Positions 2,675 to 19,646 of a stretch of 20,000 bases of DNA are shown here, piece after piece (the first letter of the stretch is position 1; each line of letters begins with the position of its first letter). The position numbers and the translations under genes are program-made. Origin of the DNA: an uncultured virus (IMG/VR IMGVR_UViG_3300048580_000371) (Duplodnaviria; Heunggongvirae; Uroviricota; Caudoviricetes); IMG/VR virus record IMGVR_UViG_3300048580_000371. The stretch is one strand, 5' to 3'. The notes under the pieces are model-generated. The model searched no databases, was not told where the DNA came from, and saw only the letters and a list, made by a program, of their open reading frames with translations.

Positions 2675-2694
2675 AGGATTACTCCTCTATTTTC
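2667..2694. terminator. Probable bidirectional terminator between convergent genes
   Basis: Perfect 12-bp inverted repeat GAAAATAGAGGA-ttac-TCCTCTATTTTC overlapping both stop codons. Confidence 0.65.
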
Positions 2695-3791
2695 AATATT
2701 CCCCTCTTATTTAATTCCTTGGCATAATATAATTTTTCTGGAAACCCTTTTGGTTTTTTAGGTGGATAAATTAATTCTGTTGGAACTGTATTAGATATTA
2801 TCCAAATATCAAATAATTGAACTAATAATTTTTCATTTTGTCGTCTAATGAGTTGTTTCTTTTTCATATTATTTTTTCGTTCATCTGATAATTTAATCCC
2901 AAGATGTGATTTTGACATTTTTTGTCTACGTTCTAATGGAACTGGGACACCATACGAAGGACTGTTTTCACCTGAAAATATTTCTGATAATTTTTTCTTT
3001 GTTTCTTCACTATGATGATGACCATAATGAGCAGCCAATTCACCTGTTTTTCCATAATTAGGGTTTTTTTCACCAGAAACTCTTTCTGATTGTTTTCGTT
3101 TAGTCTCATCAGAGTGTTTATATCCAAATAATGGATTATTTTCACCGGATCGTAACATTGACAATAGTTGTTTTGTTTCTTCTGAATGTTTAAAACCAAA
3201 CAGAGGATGTGCCTCACCTGTAACCCCAAACATTGGATGATTTTCACCTGAAAATATTTCTGATAATTTTTTCTTTGTTTCTTCACTATGATGTTGACCA
3301 TAATGAGCAGCCAATTCACCTGTTTTTCCATACCAATAAGCATTTTCACCTGAATTAGCTTTGTTATATTCAATTTTTATATTTTCAAATACAGAGGCTG
3401 TTATTTTATCAAATCGCTCTGTTCTTGAGCCATTAATAAAGGACCAAAGTGCCACCGTCATCATATTTTTAAATTTTTTATTATTAATCATTTTAACTAA
3501 TAAATGGTGAACAACAAAATGTTCTTTGGCTGACAAAAATACCAAATTATTTTTATCATTATTTCCACCAAACGAACTTGGGAGTATGTGATGATTTTCA
3601 ACATATCCCAATTTTTCCTTGGCTATTTTTCTATTTTTAAAATTTCTTATTTGTGCTTTTTTAATTATCCCTATATACCACTTGGCGTATTTTGATTTAT
3701 TGGACATTTTCCAAATTATATCTAAATAATCAATGTTGTTATCTGTTATAACATTATTTGTGCTTTGATAAATTATTAGATCATTATTCAT
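2679..3791 (-). CDS. Free-standing HNH homing endonuclease with NUMOD3 repeats
   Basis: ENHHILPSSFGGNNDKNNLVFLSAKEHFVVHHLL HNH motif; repeated HSEETKKKLS NUMOD3 motifs; start placed at 3791 by SD AAGGAG and alignment with the other two cassette copies. Confidence 0.9.
   Translation of the reverse strand: MNNDLIIYQSTNNVITDNNIDYLDIIWKMSNKSKYAKWYIGIIKKAQIRNFKNRKIAKEKLGYVENHHILPSSFGGNNDKNNLVFLSAKEHFVVHHLLVKMINNKKFKNMMTVALWSFINGSRTERFDKITASVFENIKIEYNKANSGENAYWYGKTGELAAHYGQHHSEETKKKLSEIFSGENHPMFGVTGEAHPLFGFKHSEETKQLLSMLRSGENNPLFGYKHSDETKRKQSERVSGEKNPNYGKTGELAAHYGHHHSEETKKKLSEIFSGENSPSYGVPVPLERRQKMSKSHLGIKLSDERKNNMKKKQLIRRQNEKLLVQLFDIWIISNTVPTELIYPPKKPKGFPEKLYYAKELNKRGILKIEE
2965..3332. repeat. 92-bp direct repeat inside the HNH gene (2965-3056 and 3241-3332)
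   Basis: One mismatch; 276-nt offset; encodes YGKTGELAAHYG(Q/H)HHSEETKKKLSEIFSGEN twice. Confidence 0.9.
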
Positions 3792-3970
3792 TTTGACATT
3801 TCTCCTTGGTTGTTGTATAAATAACATTGTAGCGGAAAGAGGCATCCTCCTTGGTGTCTGTTGATGGATACGCTAATATTCATCAACCCGCTATAATGTT
3901 ATTTATCTTTTTCTTTAAAATTTGTGTAATTTATTTTCATAAATATTGATTTTTCTTTCTCCATTGTTGT
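3789..3970. repeat. Endonuclease-associated intergenic cassette, copy 1
   Basis: Highly similar to 8500-8647 and 11049-11229: CATTTTGACATTTCTCCTTGG...TATAAATAACATTGTAGCGGAAAGAGG...CCGCTA. Confidence 0.95.
3824..3916 (+). ncRNA. Putative structured small RNA (three-way junction, CUCCUU loop), copy 1
   Basis: TATAAATA at 3816-3823; P1 3830-35/3888-93, P2 3840-46/3853-59, P3 3860-70/3877-87; U-rich tail; copy differences keep pairing through G-U only on the + strand. Confidence 0.6.
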
Positions 3971-3975
3971 AGTAT
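3946..3975 (+). promoter_or_regulatory. Putative sigma70-type promoter for polB fragment A
   Basis: TTGATT-18nt-TAGTAT; SD GGAG before ATG 4003. Confidence 0.5.
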
Positions 3976-4002
3976 TGGTTAATAACAGATGGAGATAAAA
4001 AT

Positions 4003-5700
4003 ATGTATGTTGACGCAATTAAAGATAATGATACTATTTTGTTAGTAGAACGAGTTGATGAAGAACGGGTTTATAGAGAATTCCCTGTTGAATATTATTT
4101 TTATATTGAAAATCCCAAAGGGAAATATACAACCATTTTTGGGACCAAGGCAGAAAAAATTACATCTGCTAATGGAAAAAAATTTAGAGGTGATTTGGCT
4201 ATATATGATAACGAACGAAAATTCGAATCCGACATCAACCCAATATTCAAGTGCCTTGAAAAACATTATCGTGATTGCGAAAACCCAAAATTAAATGTGT
4301 GTTTTTTCGACATCGAAACAGATTTTGACCCGCAGCGCGGTTTTTCGAGTCCCGACGATCCTTTTGCACCCATTACAGCTATAACATGCTATCTCAATTG
4401 GGCAGACCAATTGATAACATTAGTATTACCACCACCAACTGTTTCAATGGATTTTGCCCAAAAAACTTGTACTGAATTTGAAAATACTTTTGTGTGTGAT
4501 TCAGAAGAACAACTTTTAGAAACGTTTTATGATGTAATTGAAGATGCAGATATTCTTTCAGGTTGGAACTCTGGATTTTATGATATTCCATATATCATCA
4601 GACGAACTGAAAAAATCCTTAATAAAGAACTCACAAGAAAGTTGTGTCTTTGGAATAAATTACCACTCAAAAAAGAAGTAGAACGTGGATGGGGAAAATC
4701 AACAACATTTGATCTTGTTGGAAGAGTCCATCTCGACTATCTTGATATCTATAAAAAACATACTTATTCAGAACAACCAAGTTATAAATTGGATTCAATT
4801 GGGTTTGTTGAAGTAGGCGAAACCAAAACCCAATATGAAGGGTCGTTGGATGATTTATATAAAAAGGACTTCAAGAAATTTATTGAATATAACAGGCAGG
4901 ACGTTATGCTCTTGGTAAAGATTGATAGAAAGTTAAAATTCATGGAATTGTCAAATCAGTTAGCCCACCAAAATAGTGTGACGCTAAAAACTACTTTAGG
5001 TTCTGTTGCCCTTATTGAACAGTCCATTGTGAATGAATCCCATGACCGTGGTATGGTTATGGCAGATCAAAAAACCAAAGAAGAGAATGATAAGCATTCA
5101 CTTATCATTTATGATAAAGCAGAACAGGAATACAAGAAATCAGTTGCAGGAGCTTACGTGGCAGAGCCTCAAGTTGGATTATCCCATTGGATAGGCAGCA
5201 TTGACATTAACTCTCTTTATCCATCTGTTATTAGAAGTCTAAACATGGGTCCAGAAACCATCGTTGCCCAAATTAGACAAGATGCTACCAAAAAATGCAT
5301 CACAGATAGATTTGAAGATCAACAAGGACCAGGACCGAAATATAAACAGGCAAGCATGGCAGACTGCTGGAACGGATTGTTTGGATGTTTGGAATATGAA
5401 GAAGTTATGAAGAAATCAGATAAAGAACTTATTCTTGATATGGAAAATGGCGATACTGTCACCATGAAAGCATGGGAAATTTACAATTTTATCTTTGAAC
5501 AAAATAATTCATATTGTCTATCAGCCAATGGAACCATATTCAGAACTGACGTTGAAGGAATTATTCCAGGTCTATTGCGCCGGTGGTATGATGAACGTGT
5601 TGAAATGAAAAACAAAGCCAAGGTGGCTGGGCAAAAAGCATCTGGGGTGGAGGTTAAAGATTCTTCATTGTTGGAACAATTAAAAATGTTGACTTCTTAA
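4003..5700 (+). CDS. polB: Family B DNA polymerase, N-terminal fragment A (3'-5' exonuclease, palm motif A, first fingers helix)
   Basis: ExoI FFDIETD, ExoII GWNSGFYDIPY, ExoIII YNRQDV, AGAYV, motif A DINSLYPSVI, SANG, GIIPGLLRRWYDER; ends before motif B. Confidence 0.95.
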   Translation: MYVDAIKDNDTILLVERVDEERVYREFPVEYYFYIENPKGKYTTIFGTKAEKITSANGKKFRGDLAIYDNERKFESDINPIFKCLEKHYRDCENPKLNVCFFDIETDFDPQRGFSSPDDPFAPITAITCYLNWADQLITLVLPPPTVSMDFAQKTCTEFENTFVCDSEEQLLETFYDVIEDADILSGWNSGFYDIPYIIRRTEKILNKELTRKLCLWNKLPLKKEVERGWGKSTTFDLVGRVHLDYLDIYKKHTYSEQPSYKLDSIGFVEVGETKTQYEGSLDDLYKKDFKKFIEYNRQDVMLLVKIDRKLKFMELSNQLAHQNSVTLKTTLGSVALIEQSIVNESHDRGMVMADQKTKEENDKHSLIIYDKAEQEYKKSVAGAYVAEPQVGLSHWIGSIDINSLYPSVIRSLNMGPETIVAQIRQDATKKCITDRFEDQQGPGPKYKQASMADCWNGLFGCLEYEEVMKKSDKELILDMENGDTVTMKAWEIYNFIFEQNNSYCLSANGTIFRTDVEGIIPGLLRRWYDERVEMKNKAKVAGQKASGVEVKDSSLLEQLKMLTS

Positions 5701-5716
5701 AAATCAATGGTATTAT
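5689..5716 (+). promoter_or_regulatory. Putative sigma70-type promoter
   Basis: TTGACT-16nt-TATTAT overlapping the polB-A stop; SD AGGAG before ATG 5747. Confidence 0.4.
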
Positions 5717-5746
5717 TTAGTATGAAACAATGAACAGGAGAATTTA

Positions 5747-6037
5747 ATGATAAGTTTCTATCTAAATATTGACTCTCCGACAACCAAACATTTTTTTAAA
5801 AGTTTGGTTGAAAAAGATGGGCAGATTACAAAAAACAAACATTGGGAATTTCAAATCTATTATACTTCCCATACATTGTTTACTATAGAATTGTCAACAC
5901 ATATCAAAGGTAATGACCATGCTGGACCAGCATTTGGTATTAACATTCTTGGATTGCAAATTGATTTTGGTATATATGATTGCCGCCATTGGGATTATGA
6001 TAATAATTGTTGGGAAGAATATGAGGAGGAGAAATAA
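5747..6037 (+). CDS. Hypothetical phage protein
   Basis: SD AGGAG; 96 aa; DHAG...YDCRHWD motif. Confidence 0.75.
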   Translation: MISFYLNIDSPTTKHFFKSLVEKDGQITKNKHWEFQIYYTSHTLFTIELSTHIKGNDHAGPAFGINILGLQIDFGIYDCRHWDYDNNCWEEYEEEK

Positions 6038-6378
6038 TGGTACAAGACATTTATAATGATGGTGTTTTTCGTATTGAGTACAATTCATCAAATGGCTTTC
6101 TTCAAGTGCTAACTTGGAAAGTTTATAAAGATAATCAAAGTGTTGAAAAGTTTTTTTCGGAAACAGAAGCAAGAGATTATGTTCATACAGAAATACAGAA
6201 AGGACGAAAAATGTCTAAAGAAAAACAATTGATGGCACTTTGTAAAAAATTTATCGATGAACAAGATATTCATTGTGGGGAAACCATCTATCAATCTGAT
6301 AGAGTGATTGAAAATGCATATAGTTTTATTGAAGATGTTTGTAACATTGTAGGATACAAGGATATAGATGATGAGTGA
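6037..6378 (+). CDS. Hypothetical phage protein
   Basis: TAATG coupling, SD GAGGAG; possible internal start at 6211 (MSKEKQL...). Confidence 0.75.
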   Translation: MVQDIYNDGVFRIEYNSSNGFLQVLTWKVYKDNQSVEKFFSETEARDYVHTEIQKGRKMSKEKQLMALCKKFIDEQDIHCGETIYQSDRVIENAYSFIEDVCNIVGYKDIDDE

Positions 6379-6787
6379 TACCCCTATTGAAAAATTTGTA
6401 GATGATAAAGTTGAAAAATATTTGGCACCGGCGATTGATATTTGTAATAAACTTTCATTTATGCCAAACATGGGCAATGATGGTATCCCAATTAAAGCAT
6501 CATTGAATAAATCATATCATAATTATATTCTTCATGCCATTTGGAATGTAAGTGCATTACCATTATGGGCAAAACGCCTATATGTATTAACTTGTTTTAT
6601 ATCATTCCCGTTTCAAATACTATTAACAATAATAGATATAATTGTTGGATGTATAATGACTGTTTTTAATATTATTGGGATGATTTGTCTTGGTTGTTTA
6701 ATGTTAATCATTTTTGGGATTAATACACTGTATAAAATTTGGACAAATCATGATGACGAACCTTGCAATTTGAAAGGAAACCCATAA
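6368..6787 (+). CDS. Hypothetical membrane protein
   Basis: Long hydrophobic C-terminal segments. Confidence 0.7.
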   Translation: MMSDTPIEKFVDDKVEKYLAPAIDICNKLSFMPNMGNDGIPIKASLNKSYHNYILHAIWNVSALPLWAKRLYVLTCFISFPFQILLTIIDIIVGCIMTVFNIIGMICLGCLMLIIFGINTLYKIWTNHDDEPCNLKGNP

Positions 6788-7363
6788 ATGGCAACACATG
6801 ATGTTTCGGGTAATCTTGGGTGTAGGAAATTTAATTTCGATATATTGGAAAAATTAATCCATATTTTTCCAAGCGAAAAACCAAATGTTACTGTTGGTAT
6901 TGAAACGTTAGATGGCACTATTAACTTTGAAAATGTTGAGGAATTTATTAAATATATTAATACTTTATCCAAACAATGTACCATCACTAAAATAAATGTT
7001 CATATTATTAATGAAAATTATGACAGGGTATATATTTGTTTTAATAGATTTGTAGGAACTTATTATTCTGTGTCAGCCAAAGACCCATTCTTGATGACTG
7101 AAACATCTAATAAAATTAAAGCGTTATTGCCAAAACATACCCCAATTTTACCACCATATATTACCTTTATATTGTTTGGTGTAATATTAGGCGCTTGTTT
7201 GGCATTGTCTTGGTGGTGGGCATATGGTATTATTTTTGGTATATGGATGATTGGTTTGAACCTTCTTGGCAAAAAATTCTTTACAAAGTATCCAATTTGG
7301 CCATTCAACAGCATTGATCTAAAGACCGATGCATTGTTGTTTAAATTGAAATATATTCCATGA
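6788..7363 (+). CDS. Membrane protein ending in the FKLxW-type motif
   Basis: Two TM segments then KTDALLFKLKYIP. Confidence 0.75.
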   Translation: MATHDVSGNLGCRKFNFDILEKLIHIFPSEKPNVTVGIETLDGTINFENVEEFIKYINTLSKQCTITKINVHIINENYDRVYICFNRFVGTYYSVSAKDPFLMTETSNKIKALLPKHTPILPPYITFILFGVILGACLALSWWWAYGIIFGIWMIGLNLLGKKFFTKYPIWPFNSIDLKTDALLFKLKYIP

Positions 7364-7632
7364 AAATATCAGTTATTACTTCTGATAAAACTAAATTTAG
7401 TTATTGGGTATGGGTATACAAAATATATAAGGGTTATGTTAATACTAAACAAACGTCTGTTTGTTTCACCAAAGACTTTATAAATAAAGTTCAAAATGGT
7501 GTGGAACAATTAAAAAAGATGGGTGTTGTGGAATTTCAATTGTGTTATCTTATTAATGATACTTACAATTTAACATTTATTTTTGATAATGCCCAAAACG
7601 CAATGTTGTTTAAATTAAAATGGAGAGAATGA
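7360..7632 (+). CDS. FKLxW-family hypothetical protein
   Basis: ATGA overlap; ends FIFDNAQNAMLFKLKWRE. Confidence 0.75.
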   Translation: MKISVITSDKTKFSYWVWVYKIYKGYVNTKQTSVCFTKDFINKVQNGVEQLKKMGVVEFQLCYLINDTYNLTFIFDNAQNAMLFKLKWRE

Positions 7633-8502
7633 TTAATCTATATATCGTAAATCTAAATTTTTATACTTGGCTCCCTTTCCAGTAGGTTTGTGTGTCCCTT
7701 CCAAAATATTTTTTATAACATTATAACCAATTTTTAATTCAGAAGTTATTTCTTTTAAGGTATTCCATGATTTCACACACACCCCATCAACAAATAATCC
7801 AGCTTTAAATTTGAATTTAAGTTTATTAATTTCATTCATATCTAATTGTTCAACTTTATAATATCTAACATAATGATCTTTTACAAGCCAATGTTGAAAT
7901 TTAGATGCAGCCAATGATAAATTGGTGTGTCCAGTATTAAGAAACACTGCAGCACGATGAATACTAACAAATTCTTTTATAAATTTACCATTTTTATCAT
8001 AAATGCTTGTTTGTATTCTTGTTGGTTGGACTTCTGGTGAAATTTCTGCCATTCTTTGTTTTTCTTCTGGTGTCCACTTATGCCAATTTCTTCCCTTACT
8101 GGCTTCACCTATTAATTTTTTAGCTTCATCTGTATGTGTTTTTCCAAACATTCCATTGTCTGCTCCTATTCTTGCTGGAGGTCTATTGGAAATTCTGGCT
8201 ATATTTGTTAATATTCCAGTGTTATCTACCCGAAGTCCATATTTATAAATAAGAGTTTCTTCAAAATCATATGCGTCATTTTCATCTATAAACCCTTCTT
8301 TAATGATTTGTTCAATAGGTTCCAACCCTTGATTTAATAAATGTTTGATATAATTATCTTTAAATGAATTGTTTGATGAATTACCTCTTTTAACATCTTT
8401 AACGTGGCGTTTTATTCTGTCATTTTTTCCCTTACCAATATAAAAAGGTAAATTTGTTGTTGGGTCTATTAAAGCGTATACATAAAAATTTGTGTCTTTC
8501 AT
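7633..8502 (-). CDS. Free-standing GIY-YIG homing endonuclease with NUMOD3/NUMOD1-like domains
   Basis: FYVYALIDPTTNLPFYIGKG, RIKRH, E..LI..YG, LTN; GKTHTDEAKKLIG. Confidence 0.9.
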   Translation of the reverse strand: MKDTNFYVYALIDPTTNLPFYIGKGKNDRIKRHVKDVKRGNSSNNSFKDNYIKHLLNQGLEPIEQIIKEGFIDENDAYDFEETLIYKYGLRVDNTGILTNIARISNRPPARIGADNGMFGKTHTDEAKKLIGEASKGRNWHKWTPEEKQRMAEISPEVQPTRIQTSIYDKNGKFIKEFVSIHRAAVFLNTGHTNLSLAASKFQHWLVKDHYVRYYKVEQLDMNEINKLKFKFKAGLFVDGVCVKSWNTLKEITSELKIGYNVIKNILEGTHKPTGKGAKYKNLDLRYID

Positions 8503-8647
8503 TTTGACATTTCTCCTTGGTCATTGTATAAATAACATTGTAGCGGAAAGAGGCATCCTCCTTGGTGTCTGTTGATGGATATTGGTAGTATCTATCGACC
8601 CGCTATATCTATTTAGCTTTTTCTTTCAAATTTGTGCAATTTATTTT
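8500..8647. repeat. Endonuclease-associated intergenic cassette, copy 2
   Basis: Highly similar to copies 1 and 3; begins exactly at the GIY-YIG start codon. Confidence 0.95.
8535..8627 (+). ncRNA. Putative structured small RNA, copy 2
   Basis: TATAAATA 8527-34; P1 8541-46/8600-05; P2 8551-57/8564-70 with loop CTCCTT; P3 8571-81/8589-99. Confidence 0.6.
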
Positions 8648-8673
8648 GACTTATGTGATGTATTTCATATAAT
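8646..8673 (+). promoter_or_regulatory. Putative sigma70-type promoter
   Basis: TTGACT-16nt-TATAAT upstream of the MBL gene. Confidence 0.5.
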
Positions 8674-8729
8674 ATTATGAAATGAAGTGTTATGTTTGTA
8701 TCATAACATCTAATAAGGAGGATATTGTT

Positions 8730-9497
8730 ATGACATACAAATTAACATTTTTGGGATCTGGTTCTGCATTTACACCGCCTTGGGGAGATAACTATCAATC
8801 CAATATGGTTTTTCAATCACCATCAGGTAAGAAATTACTTATCGACTGTGGAACACAAGTTCATATGGGATTGCATGACCAAGGCTGGAGTATTTTTGAT
8901 ATTGATGCAGTTTATATCAGTCACCAACATTCTGACCATATTGGAGGGCTGGAAGAGACCGCCTTCAAAACATATTTTACCCCAAATCACCCAAAACCAA
9001 AAATGATCGCTTATGGGAGAATGTTGGATTTTCTTTGGAATGAAAGCCTTCGAGGTGGTCTTGCAAGCCTTCAAGGACAAATGGCAACGTTAGCTACTTA
9101 TTTTGATCTTGTACCAGTTGCCCGTAATAGTGGATTTGAATGGGAAGGCAATGAATTCAAATTAATCCGCACCATACACATAATGGATGGGTTTGATTTT
9201 GTCCCATCATATGGATTAATGTTTGACCTAAATGGTAAGAAGGTATATTTAACCACAGATGCCCAACATTGTCCACACCAAATCATGGACTTTTATAAAA
9301 TGGCAGATGTGATTTTCCAAGATTGCGAAACAACACCATTTAAATCTGGTGTCCATGCACACTATAGCGAATTAGTAACGTTGCCAGATGAAATTAAAAA
9401 TAAAATGTGGTTGTACCATTATCAACCTGGTGATTTACCTGATGCTATAAAGGATGGTTTCTTGGGATTTGTAAAGAAAGGACAAACATTCGAATGA
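8730..9497 (+). CDS. MBL-fold metallo-hydrolase, Apyc1-like (anti-Pycsar) cyclic nucleotide phosphodiesterase candidate
   Basis: SD AAGGAGG; LGSGSAF, LLIDCG, SHQHSDHIGGLEE, LWNESLRGGL, FQDC, GVHAHYSEL, LYHY. Confidence 0.8.
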   Translation: MTYKLTFLGSGSAFTPPWGDNYQSNMVFQSPSGKKLLIDCGTQVHMGLHDQGWSIFDIDAVYISHQHSDHIGGLEETAFKTYFTPNHPKPKMIAYGRMLDFLWNESLRGGLASLQGQMATLATYFDLVPVARNSGFEWEGNEFKLIRTIHIMDGFDFVPSYGLMFDLNGKKVYLTTDAQHCPHQIMDFYKMADVIFQDCETTPFKSGVHAHYSELVTLPDEIKNKMWLYHYQPGDLPDAIKDGFLGFVKKGQTFE

Positions 9498-9730
9498 TTA
9501 AAGGATTTAAAGTAGAATATAAACCAAATGGTGATTATCATCTTATTGAATATACAGGTGATACTGAAGTAAATAGAATTAAATATTCATTGCCTATATT
9601 TGGACAAAATGAACCAATCCAATGGCAAGACATAGATTGGATTAGAAAAGATGATAATTCAGATTATGCTAATTTTTGTCGGGCAAGATTCGTTAATGCA
9701 CAAAAAGCTTTGGAAAAAAGGAGAACATAA
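9494..9730 (+). CDS. Hypothetical protein
   Basis: ATGA overlap; 78 aa. Confidence 0.7.
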   Translation: MIKGFKVEYKPNGDYHLIEYTGDTEVNRIKYSLPIFGQNEPIQWQDIDWIRKDDNSDYANFCRARFVNAQKALEKRRT

Positions 9731-9843
9731 TGTTTTGGTTTTTATTGGTGCTTATATTTTTCTGTGGGTTTATGGCTGGTGTGATTTTTGAAAGAAAACA
9801 TCAACCAGAATTAGAAGAAGATTTAAATGAAGGGCAAGAATAA
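9730..9843 (+). CDS. Small membrane protein (37 aa; not in the ORF track)
   Basis: SD AGGAG, TAATG coupling at both ends; MFWFLLVLIFFCGFMAGVIFERKHQPELEEDLNEGQE. Confidence 0.7.
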   Translation: MFWFLLVLIFFCGFMAGVIFERKHQPELEEDLNEGQE

Positions 9844-10076
9844 TGAACACAATGGCTGCTGTGGTTTTAATTTTAACATATGTATCTGATACTGTAGTTT
9901 ATAACCAGTACATGTCACCAATTTATGTCCAAACCCCAGAAGCGTGTTTTAAAATTAAAAAAAATCTTTATAAAAATCGTGGAAAATGTGTTGATACAAA
10001 AACTGGTGAAGTTCTAATTGAATATGAAATACCAAAAAATATTGGACCAGATACTGAAGTAAAAAGGGTTCCATAA
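9843..10076 (+). CDS. Hypothetical protein, hydrophobic N-terminus
   Basis: TAATG coupling; 77 aa with two Cys. Confidence 0.7.
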   Translation: MNTMAAVVLILTYVSDTVVYNQYMSPIYVQTPEACFKIKKNLYKNRGKCVDTKTGEVLIEYEIPKNIGPDTEVKRVP

Positions 10077-10082
10077 TATAAT

Positions 10083-10114
10083 AAAAAGAGGAGAGGGTGA
10101 AATAACTCTCCTCT
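10083..10114 (-). terminator. Intrinsic terminator for the minus-strand endonuclease gene
   Basis: AGAGGAGAG/CTCTCCTCT 9-bp stem with an A-run on the left (U-run on the minus strand). Confidence 0.7.
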
Positions 10115-10124
10115 GATTATGGGG

Positions 10125-11051
10125 TTAGGTTTGTTCTGTCTTTATAAAATTTTCATAACGAGTTTCGACCATTTCAATTGATATTTTCTTTTGTGTTTCA
10201 TTATCTACAAATATTAATTCAGGTATCCAATTTTTATTACTAATTCTTATAAAATTGTATCCTTGTTTCCAAGCACTATTTTGTTTGAGTCTGTCCCTTA
10301 CTATTTGTTGTTTTGATATTGTATGGAAATATTCACCATCAACTTCAACTAATAAATGTAAATCTGGTATATAAAAATCATATAACCATTGCCCTCTATT
10401 ATTAACATCATTCACTATAAATTGGTGTTCAAATATTATACCAAAATCATTTAAAAATTCTTTAAATAACAGTTCAATATCTGTATCTTTTTTCTTTGTT
10501 GGATTGTTTTTAATATAATTGCACATCGCTATTGATTGTTTTTCTCTGGCTTCTGGTGATGGTATTCTTCCTTTTGGGTGCATTAAATCTGGGAATAAAC
10601 GATTTAATTCTTTTAGTCTTGCCCCAGCTGCATCACGTTGTTCTTGGGTCTTGATAAAAAATCCCAAACCAGGTTGACATTTCCACCCGGCAGCGAATCT
10701 GCGTTGTATTTCACCAATCATAAAGACACGCATAAATTCTTTATGTTCTTCAGTATGGGAACCCCAAGATACTCCTGTTCTTATTTTTGAAAGTTTTTGT
10801 TTTGTTTCTTCAGAACGCTTTATCCCGGTAAGTGCATTGACTACTTTTTGTTTGTATTCATCATTGTGCATTGGATTATTTTCTCTAAAACCTTTTCCCA
10901 AATCATGAGCCAAAGATTCACACACTATTGGACTGTTTGGGTAGAGTTCTTTATATTTGTTAGTATCAATCCCATGTTTTTTTAGATGAGTTTTGGTTAT
11001 TCTTTTAAATTTACAGTTGCATATTTCGCAGGTTATTAAATCCATATTCAT
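10125..11051 (-). CDS. Free-standing Vsr/DUF559-like (EDxHD-type) endonuclease with N-terminal zinc finger and NUMOD3
   Basis: CEIC...THLKKH; RSEETKQKLS; DTDIE, YDFYIPDLHLLVEVDGEYFH, RDRLK, GYNFIRI. Confidence 0.85.
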   Translation of the reverse strand: MNMDLITCEICNCKFKRITKTHLKKHGIDTNKYKELYPNSPIVCESLAHDLGKGFRENNPMHNDEYKQKVVNALTGIKRSEETKQKLSKIRTGVSWGSHTEEHKEFMRVFMIGEIQRRFAAGWKCQPGLGFFIKTQEQRDAAGARLKELNRLFPDLMHPKGRIPSPEAREKQSIAMCNYIKNNPTKKKDTDIELLFKEFLNDFGIIFEHQFIVNDVNNRGQWLYDFYIPDLHLLVEVDGEYFHTISKQQIVRDRLKQNSAWKQGYNFIRISNKNWIPELIFVDNETQKKISIEMVETRYENFIKTEQT

Positions 11052-11229
11052 TTTGACATTTCTCCTTGGTTATTGTATAAATAACATTGTAGCGGAAAGA
11101 GGTATCCTCCTTGGTGCCTGTTGATGGATACTACTAATATCTATCAACCCGCTATACTTATTTATCTTTTTCTTTCAATTTCGTGTAATTTATTTTCATT
11201 AATATTGATTTTTCTTTCTTCATTGTTGT
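11049..11229. repeat. Endonuclease-associated intergenic cassette, copy 3
   Basis: Highly similar to copy 1 over about 180 bp, including the outward promoter. Confidence 0.95.
11084..11176 (+). ncRNA. Putative structured small RNA, copy 3
   Basis: TATAAATA 11076-83; P1 11090-95/11149-54; P2 11100-06/11113-19 with loop CTCCTT; P3 11120-30/11138-48. Confidence 0.6.
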
Positions 11230-11234
11230 ATTAT
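11205..11234 (+). promoter_or_regulatory. Putative sigma70-type promoter for polB fragment B
   Basis: TTGATT-18nt-TATTAT; SD AAGGAGGT before ATG 11264. Confidence 0.5.
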
Positions 11235-11263
11235 TAAAGAATAACAAGTAAGGAGGTAAATCA

Positions 11264-13024
11264 ATGGCAGACTATAATCCAAAAGATTTAACCAAATTAA
11301 TCCAAGAAGGTGATGCTGGAAAGATAAAGGCATATATGGATGAATATGATTTGGTGTTATCTGGGAGTAAAATTGTCCCAAAATCTGATAAGGCAAAAGA
11401 GCATAAGGCTGAAGAAGCCTTTATGGATATGCGGCAGCACAGTCGTAAAATCTTGTTAAATTCGTAAATATTGCGACTTCATGCAGTGATGTATGTCGAA
11501 AAACCCCTTTAACTGCTGGAAACTCTGACCGTGAAAGACGAAGACAATCAGCAGCCAAGCCCTTGAAAAAGGGAAGGTTCAACGACCAGAGAGAAATCTC
11601 GTAGACCCAAGTGGGTCGAAATGGGGGGTATCCTGTAAATCAGGATAGTGATATGGTCTATTCTTTATGGAAACATAAAGCAGCGAAAGCGGGATAAGAG
11701 TAACGACCTTATTCGAATATCAAGTATATGGTGCCTAAAAATTGGGCCATTAATTAGTAATAATTAATTGAAAACCCCTTTAATTGCTGGAAACTCTGAC
11801 CGTGAAAGACGAAGACAATCAGCAGCCAAGCGAAAAGAAATTTTCGAAGGTTCAACGACTATGCGAAAGCAGTAGGTCCAAGTGGATCGAAATGGGGGGT
11901 ATCCTGAAATTTGTCAGGATAGTGATATAGTCTTTTCTTTATGGAAACATAAAGCTGCGAAAGCGGGATAAGAGTAACGACCTTATTTGAAAATTAAAGT
12001 GTTGAACGAAAATATGAGAAATTATGATCCAAGAATTGGCTCCAGCGTTACTATGACTGGAAGGTGTATCTCTCGTCATATGGCTGGTGTTGTGAATGAT
12101 ATTATCTGTGGTGTAAAGGATCATCGTGGGGAATCAATTATATATGGTGATTCTGTGCATGAACGAACAATAATCAATACTAATATGGGATTGTTTACTA
12201 TTGGGCAATTATATGATTATTGTAGTAATAAATGGGAAGAACGTGGAAAATATTTTAGTTCGGATGATACCATAAAGGTTTTATCATATAATCCTGAAAC
12301 AAAACAACCAGAATATTATCCAATCAATCATGTGATTAAACATTGGACAGAAAAAGAAATGTTTGAAATTCGTGATACAAGGAGAATAGAACCAAATGTT
12401 GCAAACACAAATTTTGTTATTGTGACTGCTGATCATTCATTAATGATTGAACGAAATGGTGATTTGGTAAAAATAAAACCAACTGATATATTACCAACAG
12501 ATGTTTTAATTGGTTTGGCTGATGATAATAAAGATGGACAACGTATAGTTTATAAAAGCACTTGTGAAATAAAATCATTGGGTATTGTGCCACAGAATGT
12601 TTATGATATATCAATTAAATCTGATGATAAAAGTAGGCATACGTTTTTTGGAAACAACATTTTATTAAAAAATACAGATTCTGTTAAATGGAATAGTAAA
12701 ATTGATACAAAAACAGGTGAAACATCAATTGAAAATTTATTTCAGACCTGTGAAAAGAAATGGGTTGATGGCGAGAAGGAATATGCTTGGTCTGATGTAA
12801 AGATTAAAGCATTTGATGGTAAGACCAAGAAAGCCAAATACATGCCTGTAAATTATATTTATCGTCATAAAGTATCAAAAGACCAATGGGTTATTAAAGC
12901 AGAAACAGGACAAGAAGTAATAACTACCGGTGACCACTCTATTATGGTTGAACGAAATAAAGAAATTATTGAAGTAAAACCAATTGAAATAAAACCTGAT
13001 GATTTATTGATAATAAATGGGTAA
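11264..13024 (+). CDS. polB: Family B DNA polymerase fragment B precursor: join(11264..11465,11725..11736,12000..13024), 412 aa including inteins
   Basis: Splicing restores motif B RQHSRKILLNSLYGALLNENMRNYDPRIGSSVTMTGR; removing intein 1 gives IIYGDTD (motif C). Confidence 0.92.
11466..11724 (+). ncRNA. Group I intron 1 (259 nt, no ORF)
   Basis: Exon ends in U with P1 TCGT/GCGA U-G pair; P AACTGCTGGAA, Q AATCAGCAG, R TCAACGACCA, S GATATGGTCT; terminal G 11724; splicing restores the frame. Confidence 0.92.
11737..11999 (+). ncRNA. Group I intron 2 (263 nt, no ORF)
   Basis: P1 GCCT/GGGC with U-G; P AATTGCTGGAA, Q AATCAGCAG, R TCAACGACTA, S GATATAGTCT; terminal G 11999; splicing restores the frame. 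Confidence 0.92.
12152..12673 (+). mobile_element. Cis mini-intein (174 aa) at YGD|TD
   Basis: Starts with Ser (SVHERT), block B VTADHSL, block F VYDISI, ends HTFFGNNILLKN with +1 Thr; no endonuclease domain. Confidence 0.9.
12680..13021 (+). mobile_element. N-terminal half of a split intein (114 aa) at YGDTD|
   Basis: Starts SVKWNSKI, block B TTGDHSI, ends IKPDDLLIING* with no block F/G; paralogous to intein 1. Confidence 0.85.
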
Positions 13025-13038
13025 TTTTTAAACAAATT

Positions 13039-13089
13039 GATAAATAATTTATGGTGATATATAGTGTCACCATAAATTATAGGTGGTGA
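13039..13089 (+). promoter_or_regulatory. Late-promoter-like GATAAATA plus hairpin adjacent to the endonuclease RBS
   Basis: 14-bp perfect inverted repeat 13044-13057/13067-13080, then AGGTGGTG and ATG 13091. Confidence 0.55.
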
Positions 13090-13090
13090 A

Positions 13091-14122
13091 ATGGTTGGAT
13101 TTAGAAAAGAAGAATTTTATATAAAAAAATTTGGTGAAGAAAAAGGCAAGGATGAATATCAACGAGTATTAATAGCTCGTGATAAAAGACAATCACGACT
13201 GGACACAGGTAGAGGGGTTGAATATAAAGTTTATACTGAAGAAGATGTTTTAAATGGTGATGCTATTAAATGTCAATGTTGTGGTTATATAACATCGAGA
13301 TTACAATGGACCCACTTTAAATATAAATGTATTATTAAAACGTCAGAAGAATATTTAGAAAAATATCCATTGGCATTAATAGTGGCACCAAATTTAAGCA
13401 AAAAAACATCAATGACTTTAGAAAATATGATTGAGCTTCATGGCGAAATAAATGGAAAAATTAAATGGGAACAATATTGTTTAAAGCAAGCAGAAACTAA
13501 TTCATTTGAATATAAAGCAGAAAAATATAATATATCAGAAGACGATTTTAAAAAATATAATAAATCAAGAGCTGTAACATTAGAAAATTTAATAAAAAAA
13601 CATGGGGAAGACGAAGGATTAAAAAAATGGAATGATTATTGTGATAGACAAAAATATACTTGTTCATTAGAATATTTTATTGAAGAATATGGGGAAGATG
13701 AAGGATTAAATCGTTATACTTATTGGCATGAAAAAAGAGTTTGTAATGGTAATGGTGGAATTTCTGACGCAGAAGAAATTGTATTTGATATATTAGATAA
13801 TTATATTGGGGAAAACGTTAGACAATTAGTTTTAAAACATGATACCATTGATAAACATTATAGATATGATTATGCCAATGTAGAAAAAAGAAAAATAATT
13901 GAATTTAATGGAACTTATTGGCACTGTGATCCAAGAAAATATGTTGAGGATTATATTCATACCAAAACAAAATTAACAGCTGGACAAATATGGGCGAGAG
14001 ATGAGGATAAAATTAATTGTGCCAAACGTCTTGGGTATGATATTATGATTATATGGGAAAAAGACTGGAATACAAATCAAGAAAAAATTATATCTGATGT
14101 TGTATCATGGTGGAATAGATAA
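13091..14122 (+). CDS. Free-standing Vsr-like (EDxHD-type) endonuclease with zinc finger and repeated YGE(D/E)EG-like units
   Basis: CQCCG...THFKYKC; repeats FGEEKG/HGEDEG/YGEDEG; SDAEE, YDY...IIEFNGTYWHCDP, RDEDK, GYDIMIIWEKDW. Confidence 0.85.
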   Translation: MVGFRKEEFYIKKFGEEKGKDEYQRVLIARDKRQSRLDTGRGVEYKVYTEEDVLNGDAIKCQCCGYITSRLQWTHFKYKCIIKTSEEYLEKYPLALIVAPNLSKKTSMTLENMIELHGEINGKIKWEQYCLKQAETNSFEYKAEKYNISEDDFKKYNKSRAVTLENLIKKHGEDEGLKKWNDYCDRQKYTCSLEYFIEEYGEDEGLNRYTYWHEKRVCNGNGGISDAEEIVFDILDNYIGENVRQLVLKHDTIDKHYRYDYANVEKRKIIEFNGTYWHCDPRKYVEDYIHTKTKLTAGQIWARDEDKINCAKRLGYDIMIIWEKDWNTNQEKIISDVVSWWNR

Positions 14123-14136
14123 TAAATGGGTGATTA

Positions 14137-14382
14137 ATGACCGCAATATGTTCTGACAACAATGATTATAGGAAGATAATAACCAATAAGGTTATAAGGG
14201 AAACACTTGATAAATTATTTAATTATTATGATTTAGGTCCAAATAATAGTATACAATCCATATTATCTTTTGTATTTTTACGGACAAGGACAAGACGAAA
14301 TCGCAACAAAGAATTAATATCACAATATAATTTGGTGTTAAAGATGACTTATCCGGATTTATATGATGGATTTAAATTATGA
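14137..14382 (+). CDS. Hypothetical protein
   Basis: 81 aa; ends DGFKL with ATGA coupling (possibly a degenerate motif). Confidence 0.6.
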   Translation: MTAICSDNNDYRKIITNKVIRETLDKLFNYYDLGPNNSIQSILSFVFLRTRTRRNRNKELISQYNLVLKMTYPDLYDGFKL

Positions 14383-14684
14383 GTAGGTGCTTTATTGATT
14401 GGGTGGGGAATGAACATTGGGAACGAGATTCTGACGATGATGGTCCACAATTAGTCAATCAACATTATTCCATGTGGTATAGGAATTATAAAATCCCACC
14501 TGCCCCACCTTCTGGGATTGCCCATAGAGAAAATGGACCAGCTATAATTTATAAAAATTGCAATTTAAAGAAGTTTTGTTTAGATGCTGAAGAATATACA
14601 TTAAAGGAATATATTGACGAATTAATCAAACGTGGTAAGATAAAATCTGAAGATGCATTGGTGTGTTATTTGAAATGGAGTTAG
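14379..14684 (+). CDS. Hypothetical protein with HRENGPA repeat unit and FKLxW-type end
   Basis: AHRENGPAIIY; ends EDALVCYLKWS. Confidence 0.75.
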   Translation: MSRCFIDWVGNEHWERDSDDDGPQLVNQHYSMWYRNYKIPPAPPSGIAHRENGPAIIYKNCNLKKFCLDAEEYTLKEYIDELIKRGKIKSEDALVCYLKWS

Positions 14685-14685
14685 A

Positions 14686-14976
14686 ATGGACAATGGAGTG
14701 AAATCATATCATGTAACTGGTGATTGGGAAGTATTTCGTGTCCCTGTGCCAAAATATATGGAGTGTGAAATATTATATGATGCGATATGGACATGGTGTG
14801 CTGATAAATTGGAAGGTCCATTTAAAGTATTCAATGTTTCTTATGGGTCATCAAAATCTTTTTATAAAAATGGTAAACCAAGCAAAACATTAGAAACACT
14901 TGCATATAGGGAATTAGTTCAGGTTGATATTCAAAGAAAATCAGATGCTATTTTGTTTAAATTAAAGTGGGGGTAA
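14686..14976 (+). CDS. FKLxW-family hypothetical protein
   Basis: IWTWCADK; ends RKSDAILFKLKWG. Confidence 0.8.
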   Translation: MDNGVKSYHVTGDWEVFRVPVPKYMECEILYDAIWTWCADKLEGPFKVFNVSYGSSKSFYKNGKPSKTLETLAYRELVQVDIQRKSDAILFKLKWG

Positions 14977-14978
14977 TA

Positions 14979-15305
14979 ATGTATTATGAAGTATGTTATC
15001 ATAGATTTGCAGGAAAAATAATTCAATCACCATATGAAAATGGTTATCAAATGTCCAGAGAAGAATTTTCTGTTGGTTGTCATTCTACCAATCCATACCA
15101 TTGGACGACAAATCGTTGGGTATTTGAACGTTTAATTTGGTGTAAGGAAAATAATTTAAAATTGGCTGGATTTGACACACAAGCTTATATTAAAAGTTAT
15201 GAAGGACACGAATATAAACCAATTAGAGGTTCATTAATTACTGTATTAGAATTTAGGTTCATTAGAAAATCAGATGCATTATTTTTCAAATTAAAGTGGA
15301 GTTGA
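14979..15305 (+). CDS. FKLxW-family hypothetical protein
   Basis: LIWCKEN; ends RKSDALFFKLKWS. Confidence 0.8.
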   Translation: MYYEVCYHRFAGKIIQSPYENGYQMSREEFSVGCHSTNPYHWTTNRWVFERLIWCKENNLKLAGFDTQAYIKSYEGHEYKPIRGSLITVLEFRFIRKSDALFFKLKWS

Positions 15306-15306
15306 C

Positions 15307-15858
15307 ATGAAATTAACATTGAGTGATGATTTAAGGGAAACACTAAAAACGTCAACGTCAGATATTCAATCTGGGGAAGGTAGTTTGTATTATTATTCTT
15401 CACAAATTTGTGATGCAAGAGAAATGTTAGTATATACTTATATTTGGATGACACTAAAAAAGTATTCATTTGATGATTTTAAAATAATGGTTCAAATGGA
15501 CCCATTTATCCCTATTCAAGATATTAGAAATAGTACTAAATATGTTGTTGTGTTTTTTAATGAAGAAAAATATTTATCATTTGTGGAAACAATAAAAATA
15601 ATTAACGTTGGGACAATGTTCCCTGTATTATCCAATATAGGAAATTGTATTCCTGTTGAATATCCATTAATGGATTACAGTAGTTTTTCCGGCATACCAT
15701 TTGCAGCTGGTGATTCTGAATTTCAAGTATCGCAACATATTATAGATATATTTTGTTGGATGGTAGAAAATTGTCAAGGGAAATATTATCGTTATGGTAA
15801 ATTTTTCTTTTTTGAAACATCAGAAGATGCAATGTTATTTAAATTGAAGTGGAGTTGA
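15307..15858 (+). CDS. FKLxW-family hypothetical protein (long form)
   Basis: FCWMVENCQGKY; ends FFFETSEDAMLFKLKWS. Confidence 0.8.
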   Translation: MKLTLSDDLRETLKTSTSDIQSGEGSLYYYSSQICDAREMLVYTYIWMTLKKYSFDDFKIMVQMDPFIPIQDIRNSTKYVVVFFNEEKYLSFVETIKIINVGTMFPVLSNIGNCIPVEYPLMDYSSFSGIPFAAGDSEFQVSQHIIDIFCWMVENCQGKYYRYGKFFFFETSEDAMLFKLKWS

Positions 15859-15860
15859 TA

Positions 15861-16247
15861 ATGGAAGAATTATTTTTTGAATATGGTGTGTTTTTTAAAG
15901 TCACAGATACAGGGCTTGCCCCAATGGAAGAAATAAAATCATTTAATGAATCATTTTATAATTTATGGAAATCAATTTATGATTGTAAAAATTATAAAAA
16001 TTATGGTGAAAAAGATTGGGAAGTGGTTTTAGTTGAAAACCATTATCAAAAATACTCCCAAAAGAAATGTTCGGTGTTTTGTATGGAAAAATGTACAGGT
16101 GGCTGGGCAACGAGAAATTATTATATCACAAATGGTTCAGATGATATTGATTGTGAAGAATTTAAAAAAACTTTTAAATCTGGCATTGCATATTATTTTG
16201 AAAAACCTGAAGATGCTATATTATTTAAATTATCAATGGAGGCTTGA
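15861..16247 (+). CDS. FKLxW-family hypothetical protein
   Basis: FCMEKCTGGW; ends YFEKPEDAILFKLSMEA. Confidence 0.8.
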   Translation: MEELFFEYGVFFKVTDTGLAPMEEIKSFNESFYNLWKSIYDCKNYKNYGEKDWEVVLVENHYQKYSQKKCSVFCMEKCTGGWATRNYYITNGSDDIDCEEFKKTFKSGIAYYFEKPEDAILFKLSMEA

Positions 16248-16248
16248 C

Positions 16249-16410
16249 TTGTTAAAATGGTTAAAAAGATTAATTGTTGGTTGCGACCATGATTTTGCTA
16301 TTATTAATAGCGTAGCAACAAGAAAAATTGGTGGTTATTTATATAATCAAGAACCAAAGAAAATTTTCTTTTGTAAGAAATGTGGTAAAAAGAAGGAGAC
16401 ATGGGGATAA
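16249..16410 (+). CDS. Small zinc-ribbon-like phage protein
   Basis: SD GGAGG 16238, TTG start; GCDH...CKKCG. Confidence 0.6.
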   Translation: MLKWLKRLIVGCDHDFAIINSVATRKIGGYLYNQEPKKIFFCKKCGKKKETWG

Positions 16411-16721
16411 TGTTAAGGATGCATGGACATGGTTTTCCTGTTTTAACACCAAACTTACCTGAAGGTTATATAGAAAATCCAGGTTGGTATGATGATAATG
16501 TTCTTGAATATACTTTTAGTGGAAATTGGACTGAGTTAACATTTCGCAATGAAGGCAGTTTCACTCTTTATTGGGATAAGTTTGAAGATGCTGAAAATTG
16601 GATTCAAAATAATATTCAAAATTGGCAAGAAAATGCTTGTTGGATTCGGATCAATGATTGTTCGTATTTTTATTTCAAACATTCCAGTGACGCCATGTTA
16701 TTTAAATTGAGGTGGTTATGA
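16410..16721 (+). CDS. FKLxW-family hypothetical protein
   Basis: ENWIQNN; ends FYFKHSSDAMLFKLRWL. Confidence 0.8.
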   Translation: MLRMHGHGFPVLTPNLPEGYIENPGWYDDNVLEYTFSGNWTELTFRNEGSFTLYWDKFEDAENWIQNNIQNWQENACWIRINDCSYFYFKHSSDAMLFKLRWL

Positions 16722-17232: not shown

Positions 17233-17233
17233 A

Positions 17234-18044: not shown

Positions 18045-18052
18045 GAGAAAAT

Positions 18053-18702: not shown

Positions 18703-18711
18703 AACTGTAAA

Positions 18712-19053: not shown

Positions 19054-19054
19054 A

Positions 19055-19644: not shown

Positions 19645-19646
19645 AC

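Follow-up and report, generated by a model that had tools for sequence, protein, structure and literature searches.

Can a replicative DNA polymerase still be made from a gene that selfish elements have broken at several places? The question is raised by a stretch of 20,000 nucleotides (nt), hereafter the window, from an uncultured virus of the Caudoviricetes (IMG/VR record IMGVR_UViG_3300048580_000371), in which a family B DNA polymerase (PolB) gene lies in separate pieces. Two of these, fragments A and B, are found in the window, while the remainder of the palm and the thumb, which we call piece C, is not. Selfish elements would have invaded this gene five times, and an active enzyme would most likely still be made. 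On the sequence evidence we put the probability at roughly 0.75 that the pieces belong to a working multi-part polymerase whose last piece lies outside the window; a working enzyme is favoured because every part that could be inspected is intact. The locus is an extreme case of a known kind of invasion by selfish elements.

Layout and affiliation of the locus

The window has a G+C content of about 30%, and its short plus-strand genes are densely packed. When fragment A was used as a tblastn query, 2,666 phage records were matched, the best of them from jumbo phages, with Sinorhizobium phage Phosso (46.7% identity), Agrobacterium phage Atu_ph07 and Pseudomonas phage PA5oct at the top. Close-relative scans with fragment A (4 loci, then 6 loci) gave none above 49% identity. 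Near-identical DNA was observed in lake-water metagenomes, where run X1 contained 0.99 of the sampled words and run X2, which comes from another study, 0.38. Exact words of the window were found in none of three contig collections (viral, metagenome and genome contigs). The gene is best explained as that for the replicative polymerase (family B) of a freshwater phage that is uncultured, AT-rich and related to the jumbo phages Phosso, Atu_ph07 and PA5oct.

The order in the window is fragment A (4003-5700), then 5.5 kilobases (kb) with 10 other open reading frames (ORFs) of at least 75 amino acids (aa), then fragment B from 11264, and then a Vsr-like homing endonuclease gene. Fragment B is made up of three exons, two group I introns, a complete mini-intein and the N half of a split intein. 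An original prediction, made from the letters of this DNA alone, had already described a polymerase in separate pieces, and each element that it described was found where it had been placed. Its distance of 5.5 kb from A to B stood, while its count of about 11 genes between them becomes 10 in our ORF list. The features of the polymerase locus, with the basis of each where it is not given in the text, are as follows.

4003..5700, plus strand: polymerase fragment A, 565 aa (from tblastn, Pfam, the alignment to RB69 gp43 and the ends of relatives)
11264..11465, plus strand: exon 1 of fragment B, 202 nt, from the finger-tip insertion into the second fingers helix, as far as the first half of motif B (..KILLNS)
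11466..11724, plus strand: predicted group I intron 1, 259 nt, no ORF (Rfam 89.1 bits), at the same site as the single intron of relatives
11725..11736, plus strand: exon 2 of fragment B, 12 nt (from the splice-site reconstruction)
11737..11999, plus strand: predicted group I intron 2, 263 nt, no ORF (Rfam 97.8 bits), a paralogue of intron 1
12000..12151, plus strand: extein part of exon 3 of fragment B, completing the second fingers helix and continuing through the palm strand as far as ..IIYGD of motif C
12152..12673, plus strand: intein 1, a complete 174-aa mini-intein at YGD^TDS, without an endonuclease domain
12674..12679, plus strand: extein codons TD between the inteins ('NTDS' is invariant in the alignment of relatives)
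12680..13024, plus strand: N half of a split intein, 114 aa, at YGDTD^S, followed by a stop codon (intein sequence 12680-13021)
13091..14122, plus strand: free-standing Vsr-like homing endonuclease gene, in the usual place between an intein N half and C half

Fragment A and the break in the fingers

Fragment A runs from the N-terminal domain through the 3'-5' exonuclease domain and the first part of the palm to the first fingers helix, and it ends in the finger-tip insertion. Its tblastn alignment with the intact Phosso polymerase (1012 aa) is unbroken and covers residues 3-570 of the latter (47% identity, E value (E) 3e-166), and Pfam finds in it DNA_pol_B_exo1 (83.1 bits, cutoff 23) together with the start of DNA_pol_B. 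The Exo I-III motifs can be read in the translation as FFDIE, NSxxFD and YNxxD, and motif A (DxxSLYPS), which aligns to RB69, is present as DINSLYPS. Residues 495-544, the last alignable stretch, correspond to residues 444-493 of RB69 gp43, the first fingers helix, and are followed by a 20-residue tail and then the stop codon. Stop codons are expected at 8.6% per codon, or one every 11.6, and A is open over 565 codons and the ORF of B over 345. Since an open frame of 565 codons has a chance probability of about 7e-23, chance is excluded for A.

Four relatives of A (P0125, P0126, P0130 and P0190; 49-60% identity) end within a few residues of the end of A. Among the listed protein matches to A these four are 545-565 aa long, P0125 being 60% identical, and most others have 726-985 aa. 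The break falls between the two fingers helices, and each side of it has its own start and ribosome-binding site. The comparison indicates that the break in the fingers is real and conserved, and the proposal that A stops after the first fingers helix is upheld by these four relatives.

Fragment B and its two group I introns

Fragment B begins at ATG 11264, which is positioned 8 nt after an AAGGAGG, so that the ribosome-binding site formerly ascribed to B could be located. TTG 11987, the bound of the longest ORF, was rejected as its start. In tblastn, residues 591-656 of the Phosso polymerase match 11267-11464 and residues 661-712 match 11999-12154. The exon-1 ORF ends in KILLNS and then a stop codon. 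The splice sites of B were placed by protein homology and P1 pairing, and the resulting exons (202, 12 and 1025 nt) join into a single open frame of 412 codons. Motif B (KxxxNSxYG) becomes complete only after both introns are removed: KILLNS is supplied by exon 1, and exon 2 with one base from each neighbouring exon encodes the LYGA that follows.

Both introns gave full-length matches to Rfam RF00028 (model positions 1-253 of 253), at 11437-11680 with 89.1 bits and at 11726-11954 with 97.8 bits, the gathering score being 50. A U.G pair is present in P1 at each 5' splice site (U11465.G11473 in intron 1 and U11736.G11744 in intron 2), and the terminal G of the two introns is G11724 and G11999, respectively. 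For intron 1, Rfam places P1 at an upstream AGUCGU, with the 5' end near 11446; this was rejected, as it would remove KILLNS. The splice site after 11465 was preferred because it restores motif B, has its own U.G pair and agrees with seven relatives.

The two introns share 87% mean column identity, flanks counted. The differences are concentrated in P1, P2, P6 and two other hairpins, where they are paired, and hardly any fall in the cores; the guide sequence of intron 2 is altered to pair with exon 2. Alignment of both with the introns of seven relatives (RNAalifold) gave 73 pairs, of which 41 have a compensatory change, and a covariation term of -14.6 kcal/mol; this support is not wholly independent, the structure prediction and the covariation count both coming from one alignment. 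All aligned introns (9/9) retain the U.G pair at the 5' splice site; the P1 pair next to it is G-C in seven and C-G in two, one of which is intron 2. The Rfam scores, the covariation in 41/73 pairs, the U.G pair conserved throughout and the restored motif B support the view that both introns are of group I and are predicted to be self-splicing, in line with the two RNA splicing events that the original prediction had invoked.

The P9 region of intron 2 (11916-11981) was also observed to be 88% identical over 66 nt to Bacillus phage SPbetaL1, where it is annotated as a hypothetical protein. When all of the window was compared by megablast with 50,697 phage records, this 66-nt intron stretch of a Bacillus SPbeta-like phage was the sole match.

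Two inteins in motif C

Intein 1 starts with SV (Ser1), has TADH in block B and VYDI..H in block F, and ends in ..LLKN, followed by Thr+1. Its residues 6-172 match PDB 9hth_A, by its molecule name a solved 173-residue polymerase mini-intein, with E 6.5e-15. The splicing residues (Ser1, TxxH, VYDI, the terminal N, T+1 and the next Ser1) are invariant in 8 aligned sequences. The N half of the second intein also starts with SV, has TGDH in block B and is ended by a stop codon directly after block N4, as in 7 relatives. It scores 36.7 bits with NCBIfam intein_Nterm (cutoff 24.5) and covers positions 10-94 of 155 only in the Pfam profile, stopping at the usual split point, where an endonuclease insertion or a split normally comes. 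Both inteins have the K/R-H pair that is described as typical of Ser1 inteins (PMC10189870; papers are cited by PMC number for the passages that bear on each point).

The full product of B has 412 aa, of which the mature extein amounts to 124 aa; the same 124 aa had been predicted earlier, and it was obtained again from the splice reconstruction. The combination of one cis and one trans protein splicing event had been put forward as well, and a cis intein with a split intein two codons apart does recur in relatives.

The endonuclease gene that follows (13091-14122) shares 36-40% identity with its counterparts in the related IMG/VR loci L056, L057 and L066, where they lie between the two intein halves (E 3e-58 to 3e-68). 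It matches PHROG 22677 (E 2e-45) and, weakly, Vsr and MTES_1575. The gene has a 59-residue N-terminal extension (13091-13270) without a counterpart in these three loci, the alignment beginning at residue 60.

The palm and thumb piece

Motif C is present as YGD and TD on either side of intein 1, and its final S, the remainder of the palm and the thumb are not in the window. No match to residues 713-1012 of the Phosso polymerase or to the C piece of PA5oct was found anywhere in the window by tblastn, which extends the earlier statement that they are absent from the approximately 7 kb after B. A profile search of 559 six-frame segments for the C half of the second intein hit only the C end of intein 1 itself (E 7.9e-6), and the next segment had E 0.27. 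The intein C half and the rest of the gene do not directly follow the endonuclease gene, and none was found in 14123-20000; downstream of the endonuclease gene there are only small ORFs, a MazG-like gene and a NUDIX gene. We infer that a third gene, encoding the intein C half with palm and thumb, probably exists outside the window. P0024, the match most similar to the C-type protein P0067, was considered as the partner and rejected, since its intein C half precedes TDS (site a) and not S.

Related loci form a graded series

An exhaustive search with ORF 11987-13024 (E <=1e-3) gave 816 protein matches. P0344, P0346, P0348 and P0354, together with P0496 (a cluster member of P0348), are colinear over both inteins and have the same split point, and in P0345 and P0347 both inteins are complete and contiguous with palm and thumb. 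P0343 is 87% identical over 137 residues, its source contig having 758 base pairs (bp). Proteins that begin with an intein C half are very common, with 1,334 matches to P0067 at E <=1e-20. Two sets of pieces were paired by equal contig size, which suggests that they share a contig: P0125 (A) with P0067 (intein C half and C) at 104,555 bp, and P0496 (B) with P0307 (C) at 54,527 bp.

An IMG/VR scan with the B-type alignment kept 80 loci of 180 relatives, whose parts were mapped by tblastn. One locus is without A; in the other 79, A and B are in one frame in 63 and split at the finger-tip break in 16, and the A-to-B distance ranges from -71 to 2,262 nt. By a rough sorting with regular expressions, the intein is at site a in 52 of the 80 loci, at site b in 20 and unclassified in 8. 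Two inteins were found in L013 and L014 only: in L013 both are cis inteins contiguous with palm and thumb, and in L014 a cis intein is combined with a split one, with the C piece 119 nt beyond the latter.

Nine split loci were read (L016, L021, L035, L036, L044, L056, L057, L066 and L091). The A ORF stops in the same region in each, and most have an endonuclease gene in the A-B gap. An exon-1 ORF of about 62-107 aa ending in ..LNS is present in 8/9, that of L021 extending slightly further; in L016, L036, L044, L056 and L066 it has 62 aa with the same ending. All seven split loci given to Rfam (7/7) contain one group I intron (82-102 bits), with the splice sites of intron 1 of the window, and a counterpart of intron 2 was found in none of these seven. 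The split intein is at YGD^TDS in L044, L056, L057 and L066 and at YGDTD^S in L035, L036 and L091. The finger-tip break is kept in lineages that are 42-60% identical.

Eight of the IMG/VR loci (L056, L057, L066, L016, L036, L044, L091 and L014) belong to the same polymerase clade as the window and have the finger-tip break with an endonuclease gene. These loci share with the window the intein N half in motif C, followed in some by a Vsr-like endonuclease gene, and then have the C half with palm and thumb. Unlike the window, these loci hold the whole set in about 6 kb, the A-B gap not exceeding 2,262 nt and C starting no more than 2,180 nt beyond the intein, and they have one intron and, except for L013 and L014, one intein. 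No published description of the polymerase layout of these IMG/VR contigs was found in the open-access literature.

The comparison indicates that a core layout is common to several uncultured phages: A, an endonuclease gene, B with one intron and an intein N half, an endonuclease gene, and the intein C half with C. The arrangement is therefore less singular than had been held. Breaks, splice sites and catalytic residues would not be preserved in a broken gene across polymerases only 42-60% identical, so the core design works. To this core the window adds a paralogous intron 12 nt downstream, a second intein, a 5.5-kb gap filled with genes and a presumably displaced C piece.

Two further observations were made on the relatives. 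In L049, L051, L065, L066 and L092 the A part is itself interrupted, the matches to Phosso residues ~1-116 (or 1-206) and to the rest lying 0.9-1.3 kb apart; this gap is a further insertion site in the N-terminal/exonuclease region, and in L066 a 358-aa ORF overlaps it. P0344, P0493 and P0494 start with ..ILNTKDGALLNN where motif B is expected, which looks like a possible read-through of an intron 3' end, a few bases off the intron sites of the window.

How an active polymerase could be made, and alternative explanations

We propose that fragment A is translated separately, and that the transcript of B would lose its two group I introns by self-splicing, rebuilding motif B across the 12-nt exon, as the ribozyme features and the restored frame seen in the sequence lead us to expect. 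The B precursor would excise the 174-aa mini-intein in cis, joining YGD to TD. The intein N half would then trans-splice with the C half on the separately encoded palm/thumb piece, completing YGDTDS, and A would bind the B-C product non-covalently at the finger tip, like the T4-like split gp43 and the engineered split Pfu polymerase. Judging from the relatives, three places of the gene would have been interrupted in the ancestor: the finger tip by a break with a single endonuclease gene in it, motif B by a single intron, and motif C by a single intein that an endonuclease gene had split. In the lineage of the window the intron would then have been copied to a site 12 nt away, with its guide retargeted; inteins are present in it at both neighbouring sites of motif C. 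Other genes would have gathered in the A-B gap and, probably, between the intein endonuclease gene and piece C.

Several observations weigh against a working enzyme. Piece C was found neither in the 6,976 bases after B nor in the 4,002 bases before A, and the gene of about 240 aa that follows C in L013, L014, L021 and L044 was not found in the window either. In 68/80 related IMG/VR loci C is placed within -2 to 2,180 nt of the last intein match, and the other 12/80 contigs end within 1,184 nt of that match, so that the window is an outlier in the placement of C; a recent deletion would explain this too. No C-type protein of the source contig was present among the best 120 of 2,927 hits of the C-terminus profile (157-664 aa), nor among the best 120 of 1,334 hits of P0067 (182-580 aa), where the size limits of both searches would hide a C piece that is broken or has another intein. 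Intein 1 scores below cutoff with Pfam Intein_splicing (23.2 bits, cutoff 35.8) and with NCBIfam intein_Nterm (21.2 bits, cutoff 24.5), despite which it covers positions 13-153 of 155 in the Pfam profile. Its penultimate residue is Lys and not the usual His, as is also the case in P0347 (..LVKN); a penultimate His is common but non-universal in active inteins.

The polymerase could accordingly have been disabled recently, by a deletion or rearrangement after the intein endonuclease gene that took the C half, the palm and thumb and the neighbouring clamp-like gene. A and B would then be intact-looking leftovers, and the phage or variant would rely on another polymerase or be defective. Such an event would account for the absence from the window of both C and its usual downstream neighbour, for the contrast with the related loci, in all 68 of which C is seen within 2.2 kb of the intein, and for the lack of a C-type protein of the source contig among the best 120 hits listed per search. 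The homology of the endonuclease runs to residue 340/343, so that the breakpoint would have to fall right at the end of that gene. However, no decay was observed in 977 codons, two ribozymes and two inteins, and the even depth of about 35-40 in run X1 suggests an abundant genotype, though contig depth is a poor measure of this. The A-B gap shows that kilobases of small genes enter polymerase breaks harmlessly here, and the region after the endonuclease gene is filled by the same family of small ORFs. The source contig (78,627 bp) is also only part of the genome, the related complete phage records having 287-490 kb. We consider it unlikely that the gene has been disabled.

A chimeric assembly, joined through the repeated cassette described below, the intron cores or the small-ORF repeats, would make the gap, the tandem introns or the loss of C unreal. 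The region does contain many repeats, namely three cassettes, introns with 61-84-nt stretches that are 93-98% identical and 12 copies of a 34-nt motif, and the Logan contigs of run X1 break at them (8552, 11101, 11543 and ~11802-11986). Yet these contigs tile without differences in the order of the window (3841-8552, 8552-11101, 11101-11543, 11802-11986 and 11958-19723); 11543-11802 is uncovered among the Logan pieces listed, beside which there are 314 unlisted ones. A contig of run X2, from the other study, covers 11270-11543 with 0 differences, and the depth in the intron bin (43.7) resembles that of its neighbours. For each intron P1, P2 and P6 are distinct, with compensatory changes and a matching exon of its own, which a collapsed or duplicated assembly would not yield. 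Read joints between distant places of the window were considered as alternative arrangements and rejected, since their sides of just 20-35 nt coincide with short repeats, which would give such joints. One Logan contig of X1 (11958-19723, with 0 differences) runs through the intein N half and the endonuclease gene into the genes downstream. What follows the endonuclease gene is thus joined to it in the same way by more than one assembler, although X1 may be the same source data. An assembly artefact is in our judgement very improbable.

A fuller version of the working-polymerase reading can be put together, which we offer tentatively, the odds being somewhat against all of its parts holding at once. 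The polymerase would be encoded by three unlinked genes, with C parted from its endonuclease gene by insertion of the small-gene family, and the breaks would serve as landing sites for other genes, including the anti-defence Apyc1-like gene of the A-B gap. A and B would be kept in step by a leader/promoter cassette of about 190 nt that also heads three endonuclease genes, and intron 2 would be a retargeted copy of intron 1 made within the lineage. If this is true, intron 2 is a natural record of a group I intron gaining a new target.

One essential gene here combines nearly every known non-lethal interruption: cistron splitting, RNA self-splicing, and protein splicing both in cis and in trans. 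With its simpler relatives the window forms a graded series from which the order of invasions can be read. It can also serve as a test of how intein halves become uncoupled, as modelled by Dassa et al., and of how insertion elements converge on polB, as modelled by Petrov et al. The paralogous, retargeted introns are material for the study of intron target switching, of splicing order across a 12-nt exon and of exon skipping, and the two Ser1 inteins two residues apart are material for orthogonal cysteine-less inteins. Such polymerases are under-counted in phage surveys, since they are annotated as several 'hypothetical' or partial genes.

Comparison with known systems

In T4-like phages, a finger-tip split separates gp43A and gp43B into two cistrons with 2 bp to 3 kb between them, a stretch that in one case holds a GIY-YIG gene (PMC2677866, PMC3061061). 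The original prediction had taken fingers-split gp43 and split inteins of phages to be established, in agreement with what is described in these papers and in PMC6892783. Like the gp43A/gp43B genes studied by Petrov, Karam and co-workers, the window has a finger-tip break in a family B polymerase encoded by two cistrons. It differs in that its polymerase is of another subclade (RB69 gp43 against A, E 1e-31) and its gap is larger, with an Apyc1-like cargo gene; inteins are not involved in gp43A/gp43B, whereas the window has two. The 43B gene of phage 25 likewise contains a group I intron. A Pfu polymerase engineered with a split at the finger tip is described as fully active as a 1:1 complex (PMC3061061).

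In the fractured genes described by Dassa et al. (2009, PMC2677866), an intein N half ends the ORF, a free-standing Vsr-like endonuclease gene is next, and the C half follows. The window shares with these the N half at the ORF end, the Vsr-like gene next to it and hairpin-bearing control regions with the endonuclease genes, but its C half does not come after the endonuclease gene, though that gene persists. In step IV of the model of these authors, intein halves separate only once the endonuclease gene has been lost (PMC2677866).

The Pseudomonas jumbo phages MIJ3 and PA5oct are described as having a split PolB intein with an endonuclease gene between the halves (PMC6892783). They have the site YGDTD^S in common with the window, with Ser1 and Ser+1, and the intein N half of PA5oct is 38-42% identical to both inteins of the window. 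Unlike the window they have a single intein, without a finger-tip break or introns, and their C piece comes directly after the endonuclease gene. The cysteine-less PolB16 OarG intein, as described in PMC10189870, resembles those of the window in its Ser1 and Ser/Thr+1, its position in PolB motif C and its K/R-H 'NX' motif; PolB16 is split after 15 residues according to that account, whereas the second intein of the window is split at the usual place.

Jumbo-phage genes are described as widely fragmented by introns, inteins and endonuclease genes, and in Jug phages the polymerase genes are reported to be frequently split by such endonuclease genes (PMC12880540). The same description gives Jug phages several small ORF-less group I introns in essential genes, like those of the window. 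No description of two paralogous introns 12 nt apart with adapted guides was found, no search having been aimed at them. Several group I introns in one gene are known from orf142 of Twort. The open-access literature yielded no account of a phage polymerase with two inteins at a distance of two residues, or of the combined layout. The locus is a striking record case and not a new principle.

A repeated cassette beside the endonuclease genes

An intergenic repeat of 157-190 nt, the cassette, is present three times in the window, with 84% mean column identity in the three-way alignment.

3787..3943: cassette copy 1, between the divergent endonuclease gene and fragment A (repeat family D1)
8498..8654: cassette copy 2, between the GIY-YIG gene and the Apyc1-like gene
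11047..11203: cassette copy 3, beyond which the plus strand, up to the ribosome-binding site of B, is almost the same as ahead of A

One edge of each cassette is the start of a minus-strand endonuclease gene (2679-3845, 7633-8502 and 10125-11051), these three being of different families, and the other edge faces a plus-strand gene (A, Apyc1-like and B, in that order). Ahead of A and of B the copies remain alike as far as the ribosome-binding site. The minus strand of the cassette folds into a branched hairpin just upstream of the ribosome-binding site of the endonuclease gene, with z -6.05 for copy 1 and -2.94 and -1.48 for the other copies. Control elements and hairpins are described as arriving together with such endonuclease genes (Dassa et al. 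2009, PMC2677866). These arrangements suggest that A and B may be co-regulated through the cassette.

The best sigma-70-like site of the region, TTGACT-16-TATAAT at 8646-8673, is at the edge of copy 2, ahead of the Apyc1-like gene. The original prediction had given B a promoter of its own, and this part of it was not confirmed: a scan of the sequence was not above shuffles, with 59 promoter-like sites against 65.5 +/- 7.3 and 5 terminator-like sites against 4.1.

The minus-strand endonuclease gene at 2679-3845 has five NUMOD3 repeats (145 bits) and internal DNA repeats of 102-276 nt (D12-D14). The cassette alignment suggests that its true start is ATG 3791, instead of 3845.

Genes of the A-B gap and the small-ORF family

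The 5.5 kb between A and B contain the following genes, the small ORFs being taken from the ORF list.

5747-6037, 6037-6378, 6368-6787, 6788-7363 and 7360-7632, plus strand: five small ORFs without a family match
7633..8502, minus strand: free-standing GIY-YIG homing endonuclease gene with NUMOD1 and NUMOD3 (Pfam GIY-YIG, LEM-3_GIY-YIG, NUMOD1, NUMOD3)
8682..9497, plus strand: gene of the anti-Pycsar Apyc1 family, with a metallo-beta-lactamase fold (Pfam PF23023, 99.2 bits, cutoff 50; PHROG 392)
9494-9730 and 9843-10076, plus strand: two small ORFs
10125..11051, minus strand: free-standing homing endonuclease gene, its product having a zinc finger at the N end, NUMOD3-like repeats and, at the C end, a nuclease part like Vsr/DUF559

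Neither the five small ORFs at 5747-7632 nor the two at 9494-9730 and 9843-10076 gave a Pfam or PHROG match. The GIY-YIG gene also matches NCBIfam grpIintron_endo at 39.8 bits, which is under its cutoff. The gene at 10125-11051 has weak Pfam matches to MTES_1575 and DUF559, matches PHROG 559 and 9084, and is homologous in blastp to endonuclease genes of the A-B gap in L057 (E 2e-28) and L044 (E 8e-17). The Apyc1-like gene is cargo in the A-B gap and no part of the polymerase.

ORFs 6788-7363 and 7360-7632 have at their ends ..LFKLK(W/Y).., the motif of a small-ORF family found at both ends of the window. No member of this family has a Pfam or PHROG match. Its members, at 408-1770, 7321-7626 and 14650-19999, share a repeat of 30-60 nt at their 3' ends; family D2 of this repeat has 12 copies of a 34-nt unit, and families D3-D11 are related to it. 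The repeat encodes a C-terminal ..DAxLFKLKW.. motif immediately before the next start codon. Members of the family flank the polymerase pieces on both sides and also sit inside the A-B gap. Of the other genes downstream of fragment B, the MazG-like pyrophosphatase gene (PHROG 2164 and 28554) is at 17234-17794 and the NUDIX hydrolase gene at 18268-18702.

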